Assembly (NCBI GenBank): GCA_963847445.1 | Contig: CAWJZV010000030.1 | Coordinates: 448,001 to 512,000, forward strand | Direction: 5' to 3' | DNA from: an uncultured delta proteobacterium | Lineage (GTDB): Bacteria > Desulfobacterota > Binatia > UBA9968 | Length of the DNA: 64,000 nucleotides | Shown here: in pieces, positions 2,489 through 53,049 of the stretch | Numbering within the stretch: the stretch's first letter is position 1 | How the letters are laid out: every line of letters starts with the position of its first letter | Position numbers and translations under genes: made by a program | The notes under the pieces: model-generated | Told to the model about the DNA's origin: nothing | The model's input: the letters and a program-made list of their open reading frames with translations, nothing else | Databases searched by the model: none

Positions 2489-3579
2489 ACCGCGGCGCAG
2501 GATGCCGCGCCGCCATTTGGCACTGGACACGGACGCGATTGTTTGGCAGTTGGCCGTCTTCGATCGCTTCCCTGGTGATTATTTATTTGGCCGTAAAGTT
2601 GCTGCCAGCGCTGATCGATTGGGCATTGATCCGCGCCCTGTGGTCGCCGCATAACGCCGCCGCCTGCCGCGATGCCGCCATCGGCGGCGCCTGCTGGGCC
2701 TTCGTCGCCGAAAAGTACCGATTTATTTTATTTGGCACTTTTCCTGCTGACGAGCACTGGCGCCCGGCACTGGTGATCGCATTCCTGCTCGCGCTCTACG
2801 GCGTGAGCGCGTTTCAGCTGGTGCGCCGGCTGAATCTTTTCTGGCTTTGGCTGGCTGGGCTAGTTGGCATCGGCCTACTCATGTGGGGCGGTGTTTTCGG
2901 CCTCACCTACGTCGAAAACGAGCGCTGGGGCGGACTCACGCTGACTCTCCTGCTCAGCACCTTCGGTATCGCCCTGGCGTTTCCCCTGTCGATTCTCTTG
3001 GCCCTTGGGCGGCGTTCGGAGCTGCCGCTGGTGCGCTGGTTTTCGATTGGCTATATCGAATTGATTCGCGGCGTGCCGCTGATCTCGGTGCTGTTCATGG
3101 CCTCGGTCATGCTGCCGCTGTTCTTGCCGCAGGGAGTATCCATCGACAAGCTCCTGCGCGCCCAGCTGGCGATGATCCTGTTCGCCGCGGCCTATCTGGC
3201 GGAAGTGATCCGCGGCGGATTACAGGCGATCCCACCGCAGCAGGAGGAAGCCGCTCTTGCGCTCGGCCTTGGCTACTGGCAGCGCGTCCGTTACGTCACC
3301 CTGCCCCAGGCCTTGCGCGTCGCCATACCGCCGTTGGTCAATACCTTCATCGGTTTTTTCAAAGACACATCACTGGTCGTCATCATCGGCCTGTTCGACT
3401 TTCTCACCACGATCAAAGTCTCTCTGAGCGAACCGGCCTGGAGCGGTTTCGGCATCGAGGCGTACTTGTTCGCCGCCCTGGGATATTTCGCTTTCTGTTA
3501 TCCCATGTCCCGCTATAGCCAAGCGCTGGAGCGCCAAACCGCCCATGGCACCGGCTTGCGCGCGCTGCGGGAAAATTAA
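2485..3579 (+). CDS. aapM: Amino acid ABC transporter permease
   Basis: GACWAFV, WGGLTLTL, YIELIRGVPLI, AEVIRGGLQAIP, FKDTSLV; ATGA overlap with aapQ. Confidence 0.92.
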   Translation: MNRGAGCRAAIWHWTRTRLFGSWPSSIASLVIIYLAVKLLPALIDWALIRALWSPHNAAACRDAAIGGACWAFVAEKYRFILFGTFPADEHWRPALVIAFLLALYGVSAFQLVRRLNLFWLWLAGLVGIGLLMWGGVFGLTYVENERWGGLTLTLLLSTFGIALAFPLSILLALGRRSELPLVRWFSIGYIELIRGVPLISVLFMASVMLPLFLPQGVSIDKLLRAQLAMILFAAAYLAEVIRGGLQAIPPQQEEAALALGLGYWQRVRYVTLPQALRVAIPPLVNTFIGFFKDTSLVVIIGLFDFLTTIKVSLSEPAWSGFGIEAYLFAALGYFAFCYPMSRYSQALERQTAHGTGLRALREN

Positions 3580-38554: not shown

Positions 38555-39596
38555 GTTTTACTACTTCCGCAATACCGCCGTTAAAAACTCGCTTAAGCTT
38601 CGCGGCGATTTCATCCGTGCCAATCGACCGCATACACTGCCGGCCAATTCGGCAGTGTTTGCGATAACATGGGCTGCAAGGGGCCTCGCCTTTGATCGCC
38701 AAGCTGGCGAAACCGTAAGGCCCAGTTCTCGCCGGATCGGTTGCTCCCCATAACGAGATCACCGGGACAGTCAGCGCCGCGGCGATATGCATCAGCCCGG
38801 TGTCGGGTCCCACCGCCACTTTTGCCCTGGCGATGATCCCGATCGCCTCACGTAACGAAGTGCTACCGGCCAAATTGACTACGCCCGGCTCGCTCAATGC
38901 TAAAGACTGCTCGGCTAACTGCCGGTCATTGACACCACCAAGCAAGACCACCCCAAGCCGGTGGTCGCGCCGCAGCAGATTGGCGCAAGCGGCGATTTGA
39001 TCGGCGAACCAATTTTTGCTCTCCCAACGAGTGCCGACAAACAAAACCGCGAATGGCGATTCGATGTCTTTGAGATGGCCATCAACCGCATGTCGTTCGG
39101 CCTCAGTCAAGGCGAAATCCCAGCGCAGTGGCGTGAGCGCCAGCCCAAGAAATGCGGCGAACTTGAGGTAATGATCGAGCTTGGCGATGTTATTGCCGCA
39201 GGGTTCAATGAACAAATTATTGAACAGCCAATTACACTCCTTGGCGTCAGTGCGGTGAAATCCCAAGCGGTGCGGCGCACCACTGAAGCGGCTGATGACA
39301 CCGCTCTTAAGATGGCGCTGCAAGTCCAGCACCAGATCGAAGTTGTGGCGGCGAATTTGTTTGAGAAAAGCGCCAAAGCTCTTCCACCAGCGGCGCCGGT
39401 CGAACAGGATCACTGCGTCGATCGCCGAGTTGCCTTCAAGCAGCGGCGCCGCCGCCGGTTCCACCGACCAGGCAATAAACGCCTTGGGATAACCGGCGCG
39501 CAGCAACCCGGCTAGGGGCAAGGCGCGGGTCACGTCGCCGATCGAGCCATGCAAGACCAGCAGGATACGCTGGGCATCGATTTTAGCTGGAGGCAT
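38538..39596 (-). CDS. GT9 heptosyltransferase (WaaC/WaaF-like)
   Basis: GSIGDV, FDLVLDLQ, WESKNW, VGPDTGLMHIAAAL, LWGATDP.RTGPY, CSPC...C. Confidence 0.88.
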   Translation of the reverse strand: MPPAKIDAQRILLVLHGSIGDVTRALPLAGLLRAGYPKAFIAWSVEPAAAPLLEGNSAIDAVILFDRRRWWKSFGAFLKQIRRHNFDLVLDLQRHLKSGVISRFSGAPHRLGFHRTDAKECNWLFNNLFIEPCGNNIAKLDHYLKFAAFLGLALTPLRWDFALTEAERHAVDGHLKDIESPFAVLFVGTRWESKNWFADQIAACANLLRRDHRLGVVLLGGVNDRQLAEQSLALSEPGVVNLAGSTSLREAIGIIARAKVAVGPDTGLMHIAAALTVPVISLWGATDPARTGPYGFASLAIKGEAPCSPCYRKHCRIGRQCMRSIGTDEIAAKLKRVFNGGIAEVVKHAECG

Positions 39597-40352
39597 TGTA
39601 ATACTCTAGGAAACCGTCCCAGGCTCCTCGCGGGAAGTATTGCCGTTGCGGATCGAGTTTGCCGATCGATCTCGACAAGCGCTGGAGATTATTTTGGGCC
39701 AGCGGCACGGGTAGTTGCCCCAAGAACAAAATCGCTTTATCGAAATCGATGACATGACTCTCCACGCCCGCGGCGGTCGAACGGACCAGAATATTTTTGA
39801 GGTTGAGATCGTGATGATACACACCCTCGCGATGCATCCGGCGAATCGCCGCCGCAACCGCCTTCAAGACCGCCTCGATGCCGACGCTTTGGCAGAATCC
39901 GCTGTGCAGCGCAGCCCAAAGATCATGGGCGCCTTCCAATTGCCGCGTCACCAACCAGCCGCGGTAGAATCGGTCCGGCGATTTTTCCGACACAAGCGGC
40001 ATAAACCTCCACCGTCGGGAAACCTCTGCGGCGCAGCTCCTCGGTAACAGTCAGCTCGCGAAACGGCCGGGGCGGCCAGGAAAAAAACCATTTGCCGGTA
40101 ATCGAGCGCAACATCCCGCCATGACGATAGCGCCGGAACAATGCCGTGGTGCCATCGGCCAGTTGCACCGAGCGCATGTCGCCGCGCCCATAATAGCCCG
40201 CCACGCGTACCGTATCGCTCGATCTCCAAGCAGGTAGAAAACAAAATTTCCCGCTGTCGATCTGCCCTGACCACCAAGCGATTGCCCTGCGGGTCGGTCA
40301 ACTTTTGAAAACCTTCAGGTATCGCGCCCCAGATCATATTGTCGGAAAACAT
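39583..40352 (-). CDS. Kdo kinase KdkA-like (frameshifted)
   Basis: GRG, FRRYRHGGMLR, RPFREL, YRGWLVT, YHHDLNLKNIL, VIDFDK, NLQRLSRS..K. Confidence 0.83.
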
Positions 40353-40368
40353 ACCGGCGGGAACAGTT

Positions 40369-40614
40369 TAGCCTGGAGTGTTCATGCTACCTGGAAACTG
40401 CCACAGACTGGCGATCGAGGTGGAACCCTATAGGAGTGAAGGCATCGGCGCCAAATGTTTCATCGTCGTGATCAGCGCGCGGCAAGCGGTTTGACCCTTT
40501 AACGGGTGGTTTCACAGCAGATTCCCTCGTCGCTTCATCAAGGCAGAGCCGCTTTGCCTTCGCTCCTGAAAGGTTTCGTCTCGATCGCGCCTACACCACG
40601 AATAATCCAGGCTA
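40369..40614 (+). ncRNA. Unidentified ~250-nt structured non-coding element, copy A (between waaF and the kdkA-like gene)
   Basis: Homologous to 51546-51798; nested long stems: TAGCCTGGA/TCCAGGCTA termini, 40411-40427 with 40572-40588, 40432-40444 with 40555-40567; strand inferred from G-U wobbles. Confidence 0.65.
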
Positions 40615-40644
40615 GCAGATGTTACCCTGGCGGTGACGGTATAT

Positions 40645-41736
40645 TTAAGCGGCGAGAAATTCCGGTAGAAAGCGTTCGCGATCGCCGCTTGCCTGGCCGG
40701 CTAGGAGTTTTTCCACCGCGGCTAAAACCGTTTGAGCGCGAATCTGGCGAATGCAATTCTCATGGACCAACGGACACCTTCGGCCGCCATGGGAAGTACA
40801 GGGACGGCAACCGAGCTGTTTCTGAATAACGATGGCATTGCCGCTGTACGGATAGAACCCCAGATCTGGCGTGGTCGCACAGAATAGCGCCACCGTCGGC
40901 ACCTTGCGCGCCACGGCGATATGCATCGGACCGCTGTCGTTGGTGACGAAAACCTGGCAGCGCCCGATGGCGGCGGGTAGCTCGCGCAAGCTAAACTTGC
41001 CGGCAAGATCGAGCGCCGCGCCGCCGCAGCGCTCGAACAATCGCTTGACCACCTCGGCATCTTCCGGGGCGCCGAAAAGCAAAACCTGACAATCGAGCTT
41101 TGCCTTGACCAGCCCAATGAACTCGGCGAACCCTTCCAGCCACCAGCGCTTGGTCGGCCATACCGAGCCGGAATTTACGCCGATGGCCGGTTTGCCATCA
41201 ACGACGCCGAATTGCCGAAGTTTATCGGCGACGGCATCGTCGATTTGCCGGCGCGGCGGCAGATCGAGCTCCCTGGCACAATCTTGCACACGCACCCCGA
41301 GGGGCTGCAAAATCGATAAGTTCCGCTCGACATCATGACGAGCGGGATCGCGCTCGGCGCAATGATGAAAGAAAAACCAACCTTTGCTCTGGCGAAAGCC
41401 GATGCGTTGCGGAATGTTCGCTCGATAGAGCATGAAAGCGCTGCGCGCCGACTTATGCGGCGTCAGGGCCACGGTATACCGTTGCTGCCGCAGCATCGCC
41501 GCTTGCGTGGTCAAACCGCGCCAGCCGCGATGCGCTCTTTGCTTGTCATCGACGAGGATCTCGTCGATCGCCGGATGATCCTGCAAGAGTTCTCGACCGA
41601 GCGGGGTGCACATCAGCGACAGTTTTCTGACCGGAAATCTGCTCCTGATTTCGGCGATCAAGGGCAACGTCAGCACCAGGTCGCCGAGAAAGCTCGTCTG
41701 CAACACCAGCGCATTGTCCCAATTCACCGCGAGCAT
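40645..41736 (-). CDS. waaF: ADP-heptose:LPS heptosyltransferase II
   Basis: QTSFLGDLVLTLP, PHKSARSA, GSVWPTKRW, VTNDSGPMHIAVA, CRPCTSHG..CP. Confidence 0.85.
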   Translation of the reverse strand: MLAVNWDNALVLQTSFLGDLVLTLPLIAEIRSRFPVRKLSLMCTPLGRELLQDHPAIDEILVDDKQRAHRGWRGLTTQAAMLRQQRYTVALTPHKSARSAFMLYRANIPQRIGFRQSKGWFFFHHCAERDPARHDVERNLSILQPLGVRVQDCARELDLPPRRQIDDAVADKLRQFGVVDGKPAIGVNSGSVWPTKRWWLEGFAEFIGLVKAKLDCQVLLFGAPEDAEVVKRLFERCGGAALDLAGKFSLRELPAAIGRCQVFVTNDSGPMHIAVARKVPTVALFCATTPDLGFYPYSGNAIVIQKQLGCRPCTSHGGRRCPLVHENCIRQIRAQTVLAAVEKLLAGQASGDRERFLPEFLAA

Positions 41737-41739
41737 TTT

Positions 41740-41908
41740 TTACATCGGCACCGCCTCGTCGATCAACATCACCGGGATGTCGTCCTTGATCGCGTACATC
41801 AGCCGGCAGGACTGACAAACCAGCCCGTCGCCTTGGTCATTGAGATGGATGTCCCCTTTGCACTTGGGACAGGCGAGAATGTCGAGCAGATCTTTACTGA
41901 TTGCCATG
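41740..41908 (-). CDS. Trm112/YcaR family small protein
   Basis: MAISKDLLDILACPKCKG...LVCQSCRLMYAIKDDIPVMLIDEA. Confidence 0.9.
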
Positions 41909-41957
41909 GTTACAGCCTCCAATTTCGCTTGCAAACGCAGATTCGAATGAGCCTAGC

Positions 41958-42821
41958 CTAGCGCAGATACGGCGTGTAGGCGTCCCAGCCGCGCCGGTAA
42001 GCGCGCTGGCTTTGACTGACATCGCGATTGACGAAGAAGCGGTTATACATCGGATGGCGCAGCGATCGCACTTCATGCTCCAGAGAGAACTTGGCACTGC
42101 CATCGACAGGGTCGACGATATTTTTGAAGCGAAATTGATGGTTACGCACATCTTCCGAGATCCCGCCGCGGCTTTGCAAAAATCCGTAGGGAGTGGAAAA
42201 ATTCGCCACATAGATCGCGATATGATGACCGTCGTAGGGTCTGATGGGCCGGTCGGTTTCGCGGAACAACAGCGACTGATGGCGGCCGATCTTGACCCGG
42301 CCGAACTCGCCCTGGCCGTCTGACTCGACGACGGTCGGCGCGCCAAATGCCGTTTGGTAGAAGCGCAAGATCCCCGCCATGGCGCCGCGCGGCACGGCAA
42401 ACTCAACATAAGGCATCCCCGCCGCCATGTCGCCGAACGCCGCCGGTTGGCTGGCGTGGCAGCGGAAGCGATTGCCCCAGGGACAGGTAACGATCATGCA
42501 ATCCCCGTCTGGTTGAAAAGCGAACTGGGTGTCCTTGAGCCCATCGGCGACCGCTTCCAAGCGCTGCGCCAAACCTTCCAAATGCGGCACCACCAGGCCG
42601 ATGTAGCCATCGATCACCTGAGGGCTGCGCGTCGGCAAGTGAAATTGTTGCTCGCCGATGTTGGCCCACATGTTGTTGAGGCCGACGTTGAGATACGGAT
42701 CGCGGGTGCAACCCAAGCCGACGACATAGAATAACGTCGCCAAGCTCTGATCGGGAATCTGCACGTTGACATGTTCGAGGGAAATGATATTGCCGACATC
42801 CTCTTCGCTATAGTCGCCCAT
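41958..42821 (-). CDS. Conserved hypothetical protein, VOC/glyoxalase-like fold
   Basis: LEHVNV..PDQ..ATLFY, QFHLP, CPWGNRF, GHHIAIY, EHEVRS; intact 287-aa ORF with GAGG RBS. Confidence 0.65.
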   Translation of the reverse strand: MGDYSEEDVGNIISLEHVNVQIPDQSLATLFYVVGLGCTRDPYLNVGLNNMWANIGEQQFHLPTRSPQVIDGYIGLVVPHLEGLAQRLEAVADGLKDTQFAFQPDGDCMIVTCPWGNRFRCHASQPAAFGDMAAGMPYVEFAVPRGAMAGILRFYQTAFGAPTVVESDGQGEFGRVKIGRHQSLLFRETDRPIRPYDGHHIAIYVANFSTPYGFLQSRGGISEDVRNHQFRFKNIVDPVDGSAKFSLEHEVRSLRHPMYNRFFVNRDVSQSQRAYRRGWDAYTPYLR

Positions 42822-42824
42822 GGT

Positions 42825-43769
<945 letters not shown>

Positions 43770-44351
43770 TCAATATCCTCGATCGGCGCCTGAGCGGCGC
43801 GCCAATATCCACTCGGCGGCTAATTTTAGATTGTCGAAAACCGGTTGAATGAGAAACATCGTCGACGAGAACCTGTTCGCCGTTGCTGCGCACTAAGACA
43901 GGCGTGGCCCCCACCCGCAGGGCGAGCTCACGATCGACATTCTGATCGCCCACCACGTAGGATCGCTTGGGCGCCAAGGCCAGATCGTTGGCGGCGCGGT
44001 GAATCATCCCTGGATTCGGTTTACGGCAATCGCAGGCCAGCCGATAGCCGTCGATGCCCTCGCTCGGATGATGCGGGCAATAATAGATCGCGTCCAACAG
44101 CGCTCCCTGCTGCGCCAGCCGTCTAGTAGCAGCCGATGAATTTGCTTTAACCCCGCTTCGCTGAGCCAGCCGCGCGCCACTGCCGACTGATTGGTCACCA
44201 CCACGGTCTTGAAACCGCCATCACGCAAGGCGCGGATCGCCGCCGGTACGCCGTCCAGCAGTTCGATCTGATCGGGACGGCAAAGATAGCCGACTTCACG
44301 AATCAACGTGCCGTCACGGTCGAGAAATATCGCCGGTTGGAGTTTCGCCAA
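43770..44351 (-). CDS. gmhB: D-glycero-D-manno-heptose 1,7-bisphosphate phosphatase (frameshifted)
   Basis: FLDRDGTL, VTNQSAVARG, YYCPHHP, CDCRKPNPGM, VVGD. Confidence 0.92.
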
Positions 44352-44352
44352 G

Positions 44353-45474
44353 TCATGATTCCCGGCAATGCGCTTGACGAATCCTGGCGGCCAGCGCCGA
44401 CACCAGTCGATCGCCGCCGGCGACATCCATGCCAACCCTGAGCGCCAGCAGTTTATCGCGCGCGAAGGGAAAGCGAATCAACTTGAGAATATCTTTCTCG
44501 GTGGTCACGATCAAATCGACCAACCGCGCCATCCGGCTAATCTCCTGCCAGTCCTTGGCGCTGTAAACATGGTGATCGGGAAACTCCAAGGTATGGACGA
44601 TTTGCCCTTCCCACTCATGGATCGTCTGGTAAAAATTATCTGGATTGGCGATCCCGGTGACCGTCAGGATCTTGCTATGATGCAGCACGGTCAGCGGATA
44701 GTGCTTCCAGCGGCGGGCATCGTAAGTGATCAGATCCAAGGGTTGCAACGTACCGGTAAAAACCGCGCTGGAACGATCAGGCGGCAAGTAACGGCGCCAT
44801 TGCGCCTCCGCCCCGGTGACCAGCCAAAAATCGCCACGCTGCAAGTTGCGCCGCGGTTCACGAAACGGACCGGCCGGCAGCACGACACCGGAACAGTCGC
44901 TGCCGAGAAGCACTAGATCGACATCGCGTTTGACATGACGATGCTGGAAGCCATCGTCGAGGATAAACGCATCGATCATCTCGTCGCGGCGCAACAATTC
45001 CTCGCGCCGATTGCACGCGGTCCGCGCCGACACCCACGGTCTGGTCGTAGAGACGCGCCATCATCAAAGGTTCGTCGCCAGCCTGCGCCAGCTCGTGCCT
45101 CGTTTTGCGCCATATCGCCGCTCAGTTTGCACGGTTGCAAGATCACCGGCTGAGTTTCCTTGCGCCGGTAGCCCCGGCTCAGGATCGCCACTTTCAGGCC
45201 TTGACGGCGCAATTCACCGGCGAGCCAAAGACAGGTCGGCGTCTTGCCGGTGCCGCCGACCGTCAGGTTGCCGATGCTGATCACCGGCCTGGGCAGGCGA
45301 ACCGACTTAATCCATCCCCGAGTGAAAAAGCACATTGCGCAGTTGAACAACCACGGAATAACCGATCGACGCCGGCCATAATAGGATTCCCAGCAGCTTG
45401 CCAGCGAAACCCCTCCGCTCCCACACCCCGCGCACCGTCCGACTAGCCATAGCACGCTAAATCGAGTGCTCCAT
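44353..45474 (-). CDS. lpxK: Tetraacyldisaccharide 4'-kinase (frameshifted)
   Basis: [53 protein letters not shown]. Confidence 0.93.
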
Positions 45475-45482
45475 TTATCTTG

Positions 45483-46788
45483 CTATATTATCCAACCGGC
45501 GCCGCGCGCCACTAGCGAGTCTGACAAATAACGCGCCGCCAGGGCGTAGTTATTCGTTGAACCGCGCCATCGCCATTGGCCGAAGCCGCCAGCGGCTAGC
45601 CGTCCCATGGCGATGCGCTTGGCATCGTCCGATAACAAATTCGCCAAAGCGGCGGACAAGGCATCGCCATCGGCGACTTCGACGGCGGCGCCTTGAGCTT
45701 TGAACTGCTCGGCAACCGCCTGCATATTGGCCATGTAGGGTCCGAAGAGTATCGCTTTGCCGGACCGCGCCGGTTCGAGGATATTGTGGCCGCCGACATC
45801 GACCAGACTGCCGCCGACAAACGCGACATCGCCCACATGCAAAAAAATCACTGAGCTCGCCGACCGTATCGAGAAGCAAAATGTCCGTTGCAAATAACCG
45901 ATCATCCGCGGCGACACTGCGGCGGCACCAGCTAAAGCCGCTACCTCGCAAGAGCGCCTCAACTTCGGCAAACCGCTCGGGATGGCGCGGTGCCAAGACC
46001 ATCGACAGCTCGGGAAAGCGTGGCCGTAGCGCGGCGAAACTTGCCAGCAGCATCTGCTCTTCGCCCGCATGGGTGCTGCCGGCGATCAGAAGTTTCTTGC
46101 CGTGCCGCGGCACGTCGGTGAATCGCGACGACTGGGGCGCCGCTCCGGCCCATTTGAGACTGCCGACCACCGACACCTTATTGGCATCGGCGCCAAGTCT
46201 AACGATCCGCGCCGCGTCTTCGCCGGTCTGCATGCCAATGGCGGCGAACCGCCGCACCACCTGGCGAAAAAAACCGCGGAATCTTTCGTAACGAGGCAAG
46301 GACCGTGCCGACAAGCGGCCGCTCACTAGAACCGTCGGGATGCCGCGGCGAAAGCATTCTCTCAACAAGTTGGGCCAGATCTCGGTCTCGACGAAAAGCA
46401 TCAATGACGGGTTCCACTGGGTCAAGGCACGCCTGACGGTCCAGCAAAAATCCAAGGGTAAATAAATCACCGCATCGACCCCGGCAAACTTCTGCGCGGT
46501 TTCATTACCGGTGGCGGTGAACGTCGAGAGCACGATGCGCCGCTGGGGATGGCGATTTTTCAACTCGCGCACCAGGGCGGTGACCGAACCCACTTCGCCC
46601 ACCGACGAGGCATGGATCCACACCGGCCTGGCTGCCGCCACGGCGCGCAGCTGGGCATGCGGGAAATAACCCAAGCGCTGGGCCAGTCCCGCGCTGAATC
46701 GCTTACCGATTAATTGCAGCAATGGCGTAAACGGCAAGATCAGCAAAAACACCATGGTGAGAAGGATATTATAGCCGAGAAACCACAT
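45483..46788 (-). CDS. waaA: Kdo transferase (frameshifted)
   Basis: WIHASSVGE, YLPLD, VETEIWPN, AGSTHAGEE, LAPRHPER, DTVGEL, FVGGSL..GGHNILEPA. Confidence 0.94.
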
Positions 46789-46803
46789 GAACCCGCCGGC
46801 TTC

Positions 46804-48586
46804 CTAGTGCACCAATTCGACTTCGTTCACTGGGCGATTTTCGAGTAATTGCAGCGAGTACAGCCGGCTGTATTCGCTATCCCGCGCCATCAACTCGTCA
46901 TGGGTGCCCTGTTCGGCGATCGCGCCGTCGACCATGACGACGATTCGGTCGGCCTTGCGAATCGTCGACAACCGATGGGCGATGACGATCGTCGTCCGCG
47001 TGCTCATCAGAGTCTCCAACGCTTCCTGAACCGAACGTTCGGAATCGGCATCCAAGGACGAAGTCGCTTCGTCGAGGATCAGGATCGGCGCATCCTTCAA
47101 TAGCGCCCGCGCGATCGCGATGCGTTGGCGCTGTCCGCCGGAGAGCTGCAAGCCCATTTCGCCGATCTCCGAATCATAACCGTTGGGCATCGCGGCGATG
47201 AACTCGTGGGCATGAGCCGCCTTGGCGGCGGCGATGATCGCCGTCCATATCGCGCTCGGGATCGCCGTAGGCGATATTGTTACGAATGCTATCGTTGAAC
47301 AAGAAAGTGTGCTGGGTGACGATGCCGATTTGCCCGCGCAGTGATTGCACGGTGAGCTCGCGAACATCCACGCCGTCGAGCAGAATGCGGCCGGAGTTGA
47401 CGTCGTAGAAGCGCGGGATCAAGTCGACCAGGGTGCTTTTACCGACGCCGCTCATGCCCACCAGGGCGACCATTTGGCCGGCTTCGACGGTCAGATCGAT
47501 ATTTTTCAGCACCGGCGTTTCGCCATAGGCGAAGCTGACATGTTGCAGATCGATTTTGCCCGAGAACGGTTTGGCGGGCTGGGCTCCCGGCTTGTCGCTA
47601 ATCTCCGGTCTCTCGTCGAGTATTTCGAAGACCCGTTCGGCGCCCGCAAGTCCCTGATGAACCGCCGTGTAAGTGCGGCTCAGCCCTTTGAAAGGCGCGT
47701 ACATCAAAAACATCGCCGCCATGAAAGCAAAGAATTCGCCTTGCGTGCGCCCGCCGCCGATGACGCTCCAACCGCCGTACCAAACCACGCCGCCGATGCC
47801 GAACGAGGCTAACAGCTCCATCGACGGCGCAACGATTGACTTGATCCGGCTGGCGCGCAGCGACTCTTTGAACAGCCGCCAGTTCTCCGCCATGAAGCGC
47901 CGGTCTTCGTAATCTTCCATGCCGAAAGCTTTGACGATGCGGTTGCCCTGAATGCTCTCTTGCAACAGCACGGTGAGCCTGCCGGTGCTCACTTGCCCGC
48001 GCTTGGTAAATTTTTTGATGTTCCGGCTCAGTCGGATGATCGGCAGCACGGAGGCGGGAAATACGAAAAAGGCGATGGACGCGAGCACCCAATCCTTGAG
48101 GAACGCGACCGTGACCAGAGCGATCAGCGACGTGGTATCTTTTAGAAACGATGCCAACGCATCGGTGATCGCGAAGCGCAGCAAGACGACGTCGCTGTTG
48201 ACCCGGGCGATCAGCGTTCCGGTGGGATGGCGGTAGAAAAACGACAGCGACAGCGATTGGAAGTGGCGATTGAGCGCATTGCGCACATCGTTGATGATGC
48301 GCAGGCCGACATAGTCGGTAAGATAGCTTTGACCAAAGTTCATCAAGCCGCGAAACGCGAACAGACCGATCACCAGAAAAGGAATTAAGTTCAGCATGGC
48401 TTGATCGCGCTTGCCGAACACATCGTCCATGATCGGCTGGACCAGAAATGGAATCGAACCATCGGTGGCGCCGAACGCCACCATACAAATCATCGCCAAA
48501 ACGAAATAGGGCCAGATATACGGCTTTAAGAACTGCAACAAACGGCGGTAGGTTTTCATTGAATTGGATCGTTCGGTTTTTTTCAT
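46804..48586 (-). CDS. msbA: Lipid A-core flippase MsbA (frameshift near 47240)
   Basis: 6-TM domain plus [30 protein letters not shown]; located between lpxB and waaA. Confidence 0.92.
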
Positions 48587-49716
48587 GCCATCATACCGAT
48601 TGCTATCGCCGCCACGCGGTCGGCGGCGCCCGGCGCGCCCAAGCGCTCGCGCAGGCGGGTAAGTTCTTCGACGATGCCGGCGCGCAATTTGTCGTCGGTT
48701 AACAACCGGCGGCTTTCGGCGATGAGCCGCTGCGGATTGACGTCGCCCTGGATCAGCTCCGGCACCAAACGCTTGCCGGCAATCAGATTGACCATGCCGA
48801 TATGCTCAACCCGGACCAGGAGCCGGGCAATCCAATAAGTGAGCCAGGACATGCGGTAGATGATCACCATGGGCCGAGTCAGGAGCGCGGTTTCGAGAGT
48901 CGCCGTGCCCGACGCCGTCCAAACCAGGTCAGCCGCCCGCACCGCGTCATAGCGATCCTGTTCGACGACGGGAATTTTGCTGTCGCCAATCATCGCCGTC
49001 AAATCGCCGGCATCGATGGTGCTCGCGCGCAGACAAAAGAATTGAACATTGTCGCGGGCGCGCATCTGTGCCGCGGCCGCCAGCATCACCGGCAGATGAC
49101 GGCTGACCTCGCCATGGCGGCTGCCGGGCAACAGGGCGACGGTTTTTTGAGTTGGATCGAGGCCGTGATGCGCCAGGACCGTATCCCGGCTTTGACTCGT
49201 GGTGACCGTCTCTAACAACGGATGGCCGACAAACTCCACGTCAACGCCATGGCGCCGGTAAAAATCCACTTCAAAGGGAAACACCACCGCCATCCGGTCG
49301 ACCGATTTGGCGATCTGGCGCACCCGCCCGCGGCGCCAAGCCCAAATTTGCGGACTGATGTAATAGAGCACGGGAATTCGCAGAGCTTTCGCGACTCGCG
49401 CCAGCCGCAGGTTAAAGTCGGGAAAATCGATGAGGATCAGTAGGTCGGGCCGTCGCTGTTTGAGCGCGCCGCGCAGCAGTTGGTAGGCCCGCCAAATATT
49501 TTTCACGTTGCCGGCGAGCTCCACTAGCCCCATACCGGTCAGTTTCGCTACGTTAAAAAGCGCCTCGAAATCGGTTTTCTGCAGTTGTTCGCCGGCGACG
49601 CCGAATATCTTGAGCTGGGCATCCCGGCGATGCAAGGCATTCACCAGATTAGCTCCATGAACATCGCCGGATGCTTCGCCAACCACCAGCATGACCTGCT
49701 TCGTTTGCTTAGCCAC
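48583..49716 (-). CDS. lpxB: Lipid-A-disaccharide synthase
   Basis: VGEASGDVHG, IDFPDFN, YYISPQIWAWR, FVGHPL, LLPGSR, SGTATLE, VPELIQ. Confidence 0.95.
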   Translation of the reverse strand: MAKQTKQVMLVVGEASGDVHGANLVNALHRRDAQLKIFGVAGEQLQKTDFEALFNVAKLTGMGLVELAGNVKNIWRAYQLLRGALKQRRPDLLILIDFPDFNLRLARVAKALRIPVLYYISPQIWAWRRGRVRQIAKSVDRMAVVFPFEVDFYRRHGVDVEFVGHPLLETVTTSQSRDTVLAHHGLDPTQKTVALLPGSRHGEVSRHLPVMLAAAAQMRARDNVQFFCLRASTIDAGDLTAMIGDSKIPVVEQDRYDAVRAADLVWTASGTATLETALLTRPMVIIYRMSWLTYWIARLLVRVEHIGMVNLIAGKRLVPELIQGDVNPQRLIAESRRLLTDDKLRAGIVEELTRLRERLGAPGAADRVAAIAIGMMA

Positions 49717-50669
49717 GCGCAGGTTGAGTCGAAAGATTGGCCAGCTGAGCGCTGATCGTCGAGGCGATTTCCAAAGCCCGCAGCCCTTCCGTGCCACCGA
49801 CCAAGGGCGGCGTTCGCGTGCGCACACAATCGAGAAAGGAATCGATCTCGTCGGCTAGGGCGTCGCCATCCTTGATCTCGATATTCTCAGCGCGGATGTC
49901 GAGCCAGCCGGCGCCCGGCTTGGGCTTATGATAAATCTGCGCGCGCCGTTGATCGTAGTCGATGGAGATATAGGCGTCGGGTTGGAAAAAGCGCACCTTG
50001 CGTTCGCGCTTGATCGACACCCGGCTGGCGGTGACATTGGCGATGCAACCGTTCTCAAAGGTGATGCGGGCATTGGCGATGTCGGGCATTTCGGTCAACA
50101 CTGGCACCCCCACCGACTCGACCCGCACGAATCGGCGAGCGCACCAAACTAGTGATGACGTCGATGTCGTGGATCATCAGATCCAAAACCACGTCGACAT
50201 CGGTGCCGCGCTCGATGAACGGCGCCAAGCGGTGACATTCGACAAACTTCGGATCCTTGATGATGCCTTCGAGGCGGCGAATCGCCGGATTGAACCGTTC
50301 CAAATGGCCGACTTGCAGTAACGCTCCCTTGGCCGCCGCCAACGCGACCAGCTCCTTGGCCTGGGCCAAATCCGCCGTCAAAGGTTTTTCCACCAGCACA
50401 TCGATGCCAGCATCGAGAAAATCACGGGCAACCTGGTGATGATAGCGCGTCGGCACGGCGATACTGGCACAGCGAATCCGGCCAAACAGTTCGCGATAGT
50501 CGGTAAACGCTGGCGCGCCCACCGACTGGCCGATCTCCCGCGCGCGATCGCCGTCGACATCGACTACGCCGATAAGCTGCGCCTTTTCCGACGACGCATA
50601 CTTTTCGGCGTGGAACTTGCCGAGATAGCCGACGCCGACCACCGCTACGGGTAATATTTCTGACGACAT
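49709..50669 (-). CDS. Gfo/Idh/MocA oxidoreductase, GnnA-like (frameshift near 50130)
   Basis: VVGVGYLGKFHAEKY, LVEKP, QVGHLERFNPA, RGTDVDVVLDLMIHDID, DIANARITF, TASRVS; position between lpxA/lpxI and lpxB. Confidence 0.8.
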
Positions 50670-50682
50670 TTTTCAGTGTTAC

Positions 50683-51498
50683 TTAGGCGGCGACCGCGAC
50701 GACGGCGATGCCCGAGGCGTCCGCTTCGCGCAGCAATTCATCCTTTTCGATCAAGATCGCCTTGCCCGCCTCGATGGCGAGCACGGCGCCGCCGACCTGG
50801 CGAAGCGCCCTGATCGTTTCGACACCGACGGCCGGCACATCGAAGCGCAAATCCTGCGTTGGCTTACTGACCTTGACGACGACACAGCCGGACTTGGCCA
50901 ATTGGCCGCCGCGCTGAATCGCCGCGTCGGTGCCTTCCACCGCTTCCACCGCGACGATCACCTGATTCTTGACCACCACCGTCTGGCCGATTCCCAAGCG
51001 GCCGATTTCCTTCGCCATACGAATGCCCATGGCAATATCTTGCCATTGCGCGGCGTTGGGCGCCCGGCGCGTCAGAACCCCTTCCTGCGGGATGATACTG
51101 GACAAACAGAAAGTCGAGTCGATGATCCTTATGCCGTCGCTGGCCAGTTCATCGGCGATACCGCGCAAGAGCGCGTCGTCGTCGCGGCTTTTGATCTTGG
51201 TAAGAAATCGCGCGCCGCGCAGATCCGGGCGAAAGTTGCCCAGCAGTCTGACCTTGCGAATGCCGCCGGCCATCACCGCCTCGGTCACGCCGGCTTTCTG
51301 AAAAGTCCGGATAATCTTGCCCAACTGGCCGACATAGATCCAAGTGAACTCGTCGACGCGTTTTTCCAGCGCCGCGTCGGTCTCCTCCCGGTGCGCCAGT
51401 GCCACCACCGAGTAGCCCTGACGCTTCGCTTCCTCGGCAAAGATCAATGGCAACTTGCCGTTACCGGCAATTAAACCGATCTTGCCGATCTTGTTCAT
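50683..51498 (-). CDS. lpxI: UDP-2,3-diacylglucosamine pyrophosphatase LpxI
   Basis: IGLIAGNGKLP, MAGGIRK, DDALL, IGQTVVV, AVEAVEGTD, QDLRFDVPAVG. Confidence 0.93.
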   Translation of the reverse strand: MNKIGKIGLIAGNGKLPLIFAEEAKRQGYSVVALAHREETDAALEKRVDEFTWIYVGQLGKIIRTFQKAGVTEAVMAGGIRKVRLLGNFRPDLRGARFLTKIKSRDDDALLRGIADELASDGIRIIDSTFCLSSIIPQEGVLTRRAPNAAQWQDIAMGIRMAKEIGRLGIGQTVVVKNQVIVAVEAVEGTDAAIQRGGQLAKSGCVVVKVSKPTQDLRFDVPAVGVETIRALRQVGGAVLAIEAGKAILIEKDELLREADASGIAVVAVAA

Positions 51499-51545
51499 CG
51501 CTGTGGATTGGTAAGAAGCTGCGGCACGGTTGAAAAAGCAAGTTT

Positions 51546-51798
51546 GGGTTATTCATGCTCGCAAGAACCAAAGACAGAGTGTCTATCGAGGTGGAACCCC
51601 AGCTGAAAAGTCGAGCGAAGGCATCGGCGCCAAATGTTTCACCGTCATGCTCGGCGCTGGGCAAGAGGTATGACCTTTTCACAGGTGGTTTCACAGCAGA
51701 TCGCTTCACTTGCCTCATCAAGGCAAAGCTGCGCAGAGCTGCTTTGCCTTCGCGCCGGAAGAGTTTCGCCTCGATCGCCGCTGCACCACGAATAATCC
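51546..51798 (+). ncRNA. Unidentified ~250-nt structured non-coding element, copy B (between lpxA and lpxI)
   Basis: Shares identical blocks with copy A (ATCGAGGTGGAACCC, GAAGGCATCGGCGCCAAATGTTTCA, GGTGGTTTCACAGCAGAT, GCTTTGCCTTCGC, CACCACGAATAATCC); termini GGGTTATTCATG/CACGAATAATCC pair. Confidence 0.65.
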
Positions 51799-51813
51799 TG
51801 GCGGGCGAGCGCG

Positions 51814-52590
51814 CTAACGGCACACGCCGCGTTCGGAAGCGGCGATAAAAGTTGCAAACTGCTCGATCTCCGGTAGCGCCGGCAACTCACTGCGGATTTT
51901 CTCCAAGGCCGCGGGAATCTTGAGTTTGGAACGAAACACAATGCGGTAGGCTTTGTGGATCGCGTCGATCTTCGCTTTGTCAAAACCGCGCCGCTTCATC
52001 CCTTCGATGTTGAGGCCATGCAATCTGGCGCGGTCGCCGGTGGCATTGCAAAATGGCGGCACATCTTTGGAAACCATCGAGCCCGCGCCGAGAATCGCCC
52101 CGCTGCCGATGCGAACAAACTGATGGATTCCGACCAAACCGCCGACGATGACATTATCCTCGATCGTCACATGGCCGCCGAGAGTGGCGCCATTGGCGAT
52201 GACATTACGATTGCCGACAATGCAATCATGGGCGATATGGCAATACATCATGAGCAGGTTATGATTCCCCACCCGGGTGATCATGCCGCCGCCGACCGTG
52301 CCGGGATTGAGCGACGCGAACTCGCGAATCTGGTTGTCGTTGCCAATCACCAGCTCGCTCGGTTCGCCTTGGTACTTTAAATCCTGAGGAATCGTCCCGA
52401 CGGTGGCGAATGGGAAAATAACGTTACCCCGCCCAATCGTCGTTAACCCGTCGATCACAGCATGGGATTGAATCTTCGTTCCCTCGGCGATTTTGACCTG
52501 AGCGCCGACCACGACATAGGGACCGATCTCAACGTCACTCGCCAGCTCGGCATGCGGATCGACGACCGCGGTGGAATGAATCTTAGCCAA
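51814..52590 (-). CDS. lpxA: Acyl-ACP--UDP-GlcNAc O-acyltransferase
   Basis: IHSTAVVD, hexapeptide repeats, [36 protein letters not shown]. Confidence 0.95.
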
Positions 52591-52604
52591 TTGCGCCGAC
52601 CGCC

Positions 52605-53049
52605 CTACGCCATTGCAACTTCCATGGCTGAGATCAGCGCTTGCGCCGCCACCTTGCCATCCACGCTGGCGACACCTTGCATTTTCCAATAGGCGCCACG
52701 GCGCTTTTCGACAGGTCAGCTCGATGCGCAACTGATCGCCGGGTACCACCGGGCGCTTGAACTTGACTTGATCGAGGCCGGTCAGCATAAAAATCCGCTT
52801 ATCATTCATGCCGCCGCGGGTATTATGAGCGAAGATCGCGCCGACCTGCGCCATCGCCTCACAAATCAACACCCCCGGCATGACCGGATGATCCGGGAAA
52901 TGGCCCTGAAAAAATGGTTCGTTGAATGAAACGTTTTTGATGCCGACGATGCGCTCCGCGCCCTCGATTTCAACGATCCGGTCGACCAAGAGAAACGGAT
53001 ATCGATGCGGCAAATAGTTGAGGATTTCCTTAGCATCCAATGTAAGCAA
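52605..53049 (-). CDS. fabZ: 3-hydroxyacyl-ACP dehydratase (appears fused to lpxA only because of a frameshift near 52705)
   Basis: [46 protein letters not shown]; C-terminus [22 protein letters not shown] in another frame. Confidence 0.94.

Follow-up and report, generated by a model that had tools for sequence, protein, structure and literature searches.

Among described repeats, the nearest in kind to the element considered here are the MITEs (short for miniature inverted-repeat transposable element) of the Nezha/ISNpu3 type. In the passages of PMC3184786 that deal with them, these are small, non-coding, intergenic sequences with a stable fold, bearing terminal inverted repeats (TIRs) like those of an insertion sequence (IS) and flanked by direct repeats, for which filled and empty sites are found in relatives; Nezha itself shares its ends with ISNpu3, which its own host lacks and which occurs only in another species. 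The same traits recur in a repeat of about 250 nt that is present in two copies, A and B, within the lipopolysaccharide (LPS)/lipid A gene cluster of an uncultured delta proteobacterium, in a stretch of 64,000 nt (assembly GCA_963847445.1, contig CAWJZV010000030.1, positions 448,001 to 512,000 of the forward strand) that we analysed at its full length and call the window. We put at roughly 85% the probability that this repeat is a fold-back MITE carrying the 15-nt TIRs of one clade of the IS1380 family and moved in trans by the transposase of that clade. It departs from Nezha in its sequence family, in its host lineage (uncultured Deltaproteobacteria-type metagenome-assembled genomes, MAGs), in the family of its partner, IS1380, and in having arms that pair about 80 nt deep, against the 15 nt shared with the IS.

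Members of the IS1380 family encode a DDE-type transposase, have ends that begin with CC and make target duplications of 4-5 bp. With such ISs (ISEcp1 and ISPme1 are examples) our element has short target duplications in common, as well as the 15-nt ends and CTAG flanks of elements encoding a transposase of the NF033539 model; it differs from them in lacking a transposase gene, in measuring 250 nt instead of 1.6-1.7 kb and in its unrelated interior. For ISEcp1 a 5-bp duplication is given in a passage of PMC2887853. The ERIC and Correia/nemis repeats, as outlined in part of PMC3184786, resemble the window element in being imperfect palindromes between operon genes, probably co-transcribed, with a hairpin kept by compensatory changes. 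According to the same source ERIC is TA-flanked, measures about 127 bp and exerts orientation-dependent effects on mRNA, whereas the window element is CTAG-flanked, 250 nt long, devoid of orientation bias and known here from its sequence. Chunjie, a MITE of 178-235 bp from Geobacter uraniireducens (PMC3184786, in a short passage), is of similar size and also comes from a deltaproteobacterium, a likeness that we draw by description only.

How, then, does the locus compare? The first-pass annotation had reported two homologous stretches in the same orientation, and this is borne out: all six identical blocks that it quoted occur in both copies, which share 81% mean column identity over 336 columns of their pairwise alignment, and the indels between them (8, 10 and 1 nt) are indeed not divisible by three. 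The limits that it drew were slightly too narrow and missed both the TIRs and the flanking CTAG. In alignments of 20, 38 and 119 copies the ends of the element are sharp, each consisting of a TIR of 15 nt, CCYGGATTATTCATG, with the reverse complement at the other end. Over 119 unique full-length copies, CTAG flanks the element on both sides in 48 and on one side in 35, while 10 have an identical 4-mer other than CTAG on both sides (CTAA five times, CTAT twice, ATAG, CTGG and TTAG once each) and only 2 have flanks that are symmetric as reverse complements; the flanks are unequal, neither being CTAG, in 13 copies and unplaceable in 11. The excess of identical over symmetric pairs among the non-CTAG flanks argues for a direct target duplication of 4 bp, and not for a longer inverted repeat or a duplication of TA only. 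The latter, as in IS630-like elements, is further ruled out by the covariation of positions 1 and 4 of the 4-mer between the two sides and by an empty site of the form CTAA, which fits 4 bp.

This and another empty site can be read directly. We label the window's genome G000, the compared genomes with other G numbers, loci with L, contigs with C and public runs with X. At the locus of copy A, G014 has a single CTAG between the stop codon of the heptosyltransferase gene and the ATG of the kinase gene, where G000 has CTAG-element-CTAA on the strand of the genes; conversely, contig C34 of G000 has a single CTAA where G022 has CTAA-element-CTAA. For copy B no empty site could be placed, the spacers of G014, G015, G006 and G019 aligning too poorly with the flanks of G000. 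Among contigs from public runs none joins across an empty site at copy A, and a single low-depth contig of X7 has a skip of 70 nt. The element is 211-266 nt long, apart from one copy of 117 nt, and has no coding capacity: most of 38 copies have stops in all six frames, frames shift between subfamilies and none is conserved. An open reading frame (ORF) of 72 amino acids spanning the element in L002 was considered and rejected, its frame not being kept in other copies.

A probable partner emerges from these ends. The complete ISs at L231, L232, L233 and L229 measure 1.6-1.7 kb and have CTAG...CTAG flanks in 4/4 cases; L231, L232 and L233 begin and end with CCCGGATTATTCATGGTT, each deviating from it at a single end by one or two bases, and equal the MITE ends over CTAG plus 15 nt. 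Ends and target of the repeat are thus identical to those of these ISs. L231 is located in G018, a member of the window's own genus, and the NF033539 score of its ORF (384.3 bits, cut-off 180) identifies an IS1380-family transposase. An intact transposase of the same family occurs in G067 (L223; PF13701 450 bits, NF033539 352.9 bits against the cut-off of 180). At 57 nt upstream of its start lies CTAG, continued by CCTGAATTTTTCAC, this left end being the only one found; a search of the bacterial family with the L223 protein detected relatives in 7 of 90 genomes (E<=1e-20), a tally that takes in the unpublished G080. As an observation in its own right, the IS1380-family element of L231 appears to be flanked by the two halves of a gene for a substrate-binding-type protein (L231:651-1148 and 2792-3283, in G018), which suggests that it entered this gene fairly recently.

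Several other candidates for the parent were tried and set aside. The TIR pairs or lone TIRs of G008 (L031-L035) flank ordinary genes, and the 46 TIR matches of G041 include none at IS-like spacing. Lone arms in G067, G073, G074, G092, G121 and G066 have TPR, metallo-beta-lactamase-fold, PAP2 and Mfd-like genes as neighbours, with no transposase. Other ends were found in the IS1380 fragments L082-L085, of which L082 shares no more than 23% identity with the transposase of L231, and in the IS1380-like element L224 of G110, which ends with CCATAACTCCGC.

As to the spread of the repeat, six copies were found in G000, three by BLAST, as the first-pass annotation had recommended, and three more through their TIRs or arms. 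Those outside the window lie at C45:70297-70541 and C34:114473-730, together with two variants of 215 nt on C9 and C48, in which the arms are as in other copies and the core is unrelated and AT-rich; other subfamilies have the whole core replaced. A first draw of 41 genomes had the element in 9, and the wider tally, which takes in the unpublished G005, has it in 32 of the 123 genomes of the order, all of one family, and lacking in 91. By family, 31/89 genomes of f1, 0/5 of f2 and 0/28 of f3 carry it, and 11 of 27 genera are positive. In five congeners the TIR pattern has 73, 63, 55, 22 and 14 matches, compared with 2-6 for a reversed control, so that copy-rich genomes hold some 30 or more copies each (55-73 end matches, two ends per copy); many short-read contigs of G008 start within the element. 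A scan for the arm motif over the genomes of named species brought up 58 stretches. Seven MAG records account for 57, under the labels uncultured delta proteobacterium, Deltaproteobacteria bacterium, uncultured Syntrophobacter sp. or Thermodesulfobacteriota bacterium, and the remaining one comes from a bin labelled Streptomycetaceae.

On this basis the history of the copies may be pictured as follows. A non-coding fold-back element of about 250 nt, equipped with the 15-nt TIRs of an IS1380-family clade, would be acted upon in trans by the transposase of the corresponding ISs, which would cut CTAG, or less often CTAA, with a 4-bp stagger, leaving 4 bp duplicated on both sides. CTAG contains the stop codon TAG and is scarce in the window (45 occurrences against 83.1 expected from dinucleotide-preserving shuffles, 100/100 of which have 45 or more); it is the target of both the MITE and a local IS5-like element. 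Insertions just past stop codons may thus be put down to the rarity of the target and its tendency to coincide with TAG stops or to lie close to them, and copies would for this reason settle in the intergenic spaces of the LPS/lipid A operons. No such transposase turned up in G000, whose copies would therefore by now be immobile orphans.

A number of observations weigh against this account. The similarity between IS and MITE breaks off past the 15-nt TIR, at about 19-22 nt, beyond which the interiors are unrelated, and the element is not a simple deletion derivative of the IS. In G000, as in the copy-rich genomes G008, G009, G023 and G085, a transposase of the matching clade was looked for and not found, while G018, which has the best-matching IS, has no match to the MITE; co-occurrence of the two is therefore weak, and it is from the shared ends only that mobilization by an IS1380-type transposase is suggested. 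Moreover, a core of about 100 nt is recognizable between genera at about 70% identity, and copy B is better conserved than third codon positions, with 89.4% versus 81.9% identity to G003 (12 gap positions) and 83.8% versus 74.2% to G004 (23 gap positions). Finally, a model that invokes TIRs only leaves without explanation the pairing of those inner parts of the arms that lie some 30-95 nt away from the ends, as well as an excess of G-U over A-C changes within them. The latter traits are best followed on the features of the two copies, which with their flanks extend over 40368-40615 (A) and 51539-51805 (B):

40368..40371, + strand: target-site duplication on the left of copy A, which reads TTAG today and differs from CTAG by a single change (from the sequence, the CTAG consensus of flanks and the G014 empty site with a single CTAG)
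40372..40611, + strand: copy A, MITE proper, 240 nt (limits from alignments of 20, then 38 copies)
40372..40386, + strand: left TIR of copy A, CCTGGAGTGTTCATG, with 2 mismatches (pattern scan)
40411..40427, + strand: inner-arm stem of copy A, 5' side, partner of 40572-40588 (fold; alignment A2 columns 48-63 with 239-264, 95-97% paired)
40438..40444, + strand: GAAGGCA side of the innermost arm stem of copy A, partner of TGCCTTC at 40555-40561 (fold)
40555..40561, + strand: TGCCTTC side of the innermost arm stem of copy A (fold and alignment)
40572..40588, + strand: inner-arm stem of copy A, 3' side (fold and alignment)
40597..40611, - strand: right TIR of copy A, CCTGGATTATTCGTG as read on the minus strand, 0 mismatches (matches the IS1380-family IS ends)
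40612..40615, + strand: right target-site duplication of copy A, CTAG (from the sequence)
51539..51542, + strand: left flank 4-mer of copy B, decayed, CAAG (from the sequence)
51543..51801, + strand: copy B, MITE proper, 259 nt, with insertions of 8 nt and 10 nt relative to copy A (alignment; orthologues in G003 and G004)
51543..51557, + strand: left TIR of copy B, 3 mismatches (pattern scan)
51787..51801, - strand: right TIR of copy B, 0 mismatches (pattern scan)
51802..51805, + strand: right flank 4-mer of copy B, decayed, CGGG (from the sequence)
39583..40352, - strand: Kdo/WaaP-family kinase gene, two ORFs here, ATG 15 nt from the flank of copy A (context)
40645..41736, - strand: heptosyltransferase gene (Glyco_transf_9), stop codon 29 nt from the CTAG of copy A (context)
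50683..51498, - strand: lpxI, downstream of copy B (context)
51814..53049, - strand: fabZ and lpxA as one ORF, stop codon 8 nt from the flank of copy B (context)

Why do the arms pair so far beyond the ends shared with the IS? On its + strand, + being the orientation with the longer left arm, copy A has a minimum free energy of -104.1 kcal/mol (z = -5.2, with 0/200 shuffles as good), and on the opposite strand of -100.1 (z = -4.6). The fold that the first-pass annotation had drawn by eye holds in its outer part, namely the terminal stem, the asymmetric loop, the stem 40411-40427/40572-40588 and the GAAGGCA/TGCCTTC stem, but its multibranch head is not conserved. Across 38 copies the head helices pair in 70.5% of cells, a share that 489 of 500 shuffles equal, and with them fall the C-G to T-A swap, which amounts to a single cell, and the GGCAAG/CTTGCC helix that had been offered as pairing-preserving differences. 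By contrast, the arms, of about 80 nt, are 92.4% paired in the same copies, compared with 31-44% when partners are slid, and arm cells changed on both sides number 45, against 19.9 in shuffles (0/500 as high). The innermost arm stem (A2 columns 89-100 with 223-234) is 96.9% paired, and its column pair 91-231 is GC in 23 copies, AU in 15 and broken in none. Parsimony on a tree of 119 copies gives 36 double changes from one Watson-Crick pair to another, distributed over 22 of 44 arm pairs and recurrent at some, with four at 53-216 and four at 56-213. Mutual information over all column pairs is dominated by the split into two subfamilies and is little informative. The arm pairing is maintained by compensatory changes, and a kept structure is supported for the arms only, which is as much as remains of the earlier suggestion of a structure under selection.

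It is on these data that the strongest rival draws, according to which the element is a MITE whose fold-back arms act in addition as a strand-specific hairpin of single-stranded DNA (ssDNA) or RNA, either for the efficiency of transposition or on host mRNA, the pairing being kept by selection. We take this to be a possibility of some weight, though a clearly less probable one. The recurrent double changes speak for it, and so does a strand asymmetry: in the + orientation 147 changes lead to G-U against 104 to A-C (p = 0.008), and reversions to a pair come from G-U in 42 cases and from A-C in 10 on the 119-copy tree. Yet the first excess is a modest one of 1.4-fold, obtained by parsimony on an approximate tree, and singleton variants in the first 38 copies have no bias (9 G-U, 13 A-C). 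Similarly, the consensus fold of the 38-copy set favours the + over the - strand, at -23.6 versus -6.5, while RIBOSUM scoring of a larger set, which held 5 reverse-strand duplicates, finds both about equal (-115 versus -106). Template-switch correction of quasi-palindromes in replication, besides, would give the same compensatory pattern without selection; the pairing of the arms may be kept by hairpin selection or by such correction, the data fitting either. Transcription of the arms is touched by a 182-nt contig from an RNA library, X16, that spans 40287-40468, from within the kinase gene to the left arm, a weak hint at co-transcription of copy A with this gene, given that RNA-library contigs provide neither strand nor level, that DNA may be present in such libraries and that the RNA runs hold small shares only.

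The arms also occur in other company. G072, which belongs to another genus, has a sister MITE (L218-L222) of about 265 nt with ends CCCGGATTCCGCAGTTG and 199 candidates at first look; its flanks are 5-bp repeats (TTCAA, TTGAA, TTGAT; TTSAA-like), and its inner-arm module is the same as in the window element. The same module thus stands behind two TIRs with two kinds of duplication, 4 bp (CTAG) for the window element and 5 bp (TTSAA) for that of G072, a fact that favours the hairpin and would allow a bolder conjecture, which we consider doubtful: the 80-nt arms could be a portable hairpin cassette, selected as a single strand on one of the two strands and raising the mobility of whatever IS1380-type ends it is attached to. 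If true, this would imply a strand-specific step of ssDNA or RNA in transposition by these DDE enzymes, and we know of no such step in the IS1380 family.

Much further from what we observe is the option that had come first in the first-pass annotation, a new structured RNA, here taken to mean that the two gaps are non-coding RNA genes serving the cell within the LPS/lipid A cluster. The strong fold, the covarying arms, the conservation of copy B above the level of third codon positions and the location inside operons, beside stop codons, could all be taken in its favour. Against it, no known RNA family matches, Rfam giving 0 matches at gathering scores over the 64-kb window and 0 at E<=1 over L001-L003 (9.7 kb). 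The proposal is further at odds with head helices that do no better than shuffles, with cores swapped whole between subfamilies, with an empty site at the same LPS locus of a relative and with a number per genome that ranges from none to about 30 or more, beside unrelated genes and in either orientation. In 62 copies we count 13 sense and 18 antisense to co-directional gene pairs, 8 between convergent and 5 between divergent neighbours, and 18 at a distance from any gene, so that the copies have no preferred orientation with respect to adjacent genes, a point that tells against a hairpin acting on host mRNA as well. The copies had been described as lying just past stop codons; the neighbouring stops are there, but all neighbouring genes lie on the minus strand, which places the two copies of the window antisense to the operons around them. 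Neither copy has a promoter-like or terminator-like site within it.

The divergence of the copies points the same way. Copy A is common to G000 and G003, with 86.9% identity between the two, practically that of third codon positions in the adjacent gene (87.3%), and has left a decayed trace in G004; copy B is common to G000, G003 and G004. Both are old insertions, being shared with related species and having CTAG flanks that are partly or wholly decayed, and with the figures for copy B taken into account any constraint on them in place is at most mild. A 1786-nt contig from a public sediment run has the element at the same site, with 31 differences. At the copy A site of G004 (L039:2593-2831), a spacer of 239 nt, only the TIR beside the downstream ATG is recognizable (...ATGATCCGGG then CTAG), so the rest is decayed or replaced. 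Altogether, nothing indicates a cellular function for the copies, and RNA genes are in our judgement a very improbable explanation.

To an equally slight degree we credit an IS5-family transposase as the mover. IS5 duplicates a 4-bp target with a consensus that fits both CTAG and CTAA, each of them listed as a site of IS5 insertion (PMC11677980, in the passage on its target), exactly the target and duplication of the window element; its ends, on the other hand, are unrelated. Likewise, an IS5-like element in G008 is flanked CTAG...CTAG and has unrelated ends (GAGTCTGGGC...). The TIR of the MITE is missing from all 14 DDE_Tnp_1 loci of G008, G009 and G023, and the DUF772/IS5-like loci tried as partners have other ends, whereas the IS1380-family ISs match the 15-nt TIR and the CTAG flanks together. 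For the record, the IS5-like element at L164:1243-2701 (G008:C8) comprises DUF772 and DDE_Tnp_1, with an in-frame TGA, CTAG...CTAG flanks and the unrelated ends GAGTCTGGGCGGCAGAA.

The first-pass annotation was right in kind when it alternatively thought of a non-autonomous mobile element with its enzyme encoded elsewhere, but the examples it chose, a guide/bridge RNA or an ssDNA substrate, do not suit TIRs, a 4-bp duplication and IS1380-family ends: an element mobilized by a Y1, RAYT or IS110 enzyme, whether an IS200/IS605-type PATE, a REPIN or one of the guide/bridge-RNA kind, would account for the hairpins, the slight strand asymmetry and the lack of an enzyme encoded nearby, and is nonetheless the least credible option, as IS605-type elements and PATEs have neither TIRs nor target duplication (PMC3119063, in the passage concerned), Rfam offers no match and a DDE-type IS1380 element has the same ends.

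For annotation, the reading as a MITE with IS1380-type ends means that the label for the two gaps should be MITE copy instead of candidate RNA gene, and that the LPS/lipid A cluster harbours old passengers in its operons, with nothing pointing to a regulatory role. Other stretches of DNA from this family of uncultured Deltaproteobacteria-type genomes will contain it again, and short-read assemblies there are broken by it. At the level of titles and passages, our literature search on the IS1380 family and MITEs met no IS1380-derived MITE, nor a link of MITEs to IS1380-family transposases with strict CTAG targeting. Two traits deserve attention above others, the kept pairing of the 80-nt arms and the reuse of their module behind different transposase ends; about 120 diverged copies with independent double changes constitute a data set on whether the fold-back of MITEs is selected or a by-product.

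A second, different repeat of about 100-170 nt (L022:198-363, in G004:C6; for example C24:109861-109962 of G000) has more than 100 BLAST matches over many contigs of G000, none of them within the range of the window. Next to copy A, two overlapping ORFs, 39948-40352 and 39583-40002, make up the kinase gene, with the PF06293 match only in the second. This split is probably an assembly indel, since the gene is a single ORF of 256 amino acids in G004 and contigs of three public runs are without one base at 40206/40207, two of them also at 39971. Next to copy B, the joint ORF of fabZ and lpxA encodes 411 amino acids, with a FabA-like domain at residues 13-115 and an odd linker between its parts, and may be either another indel or a real fusion.

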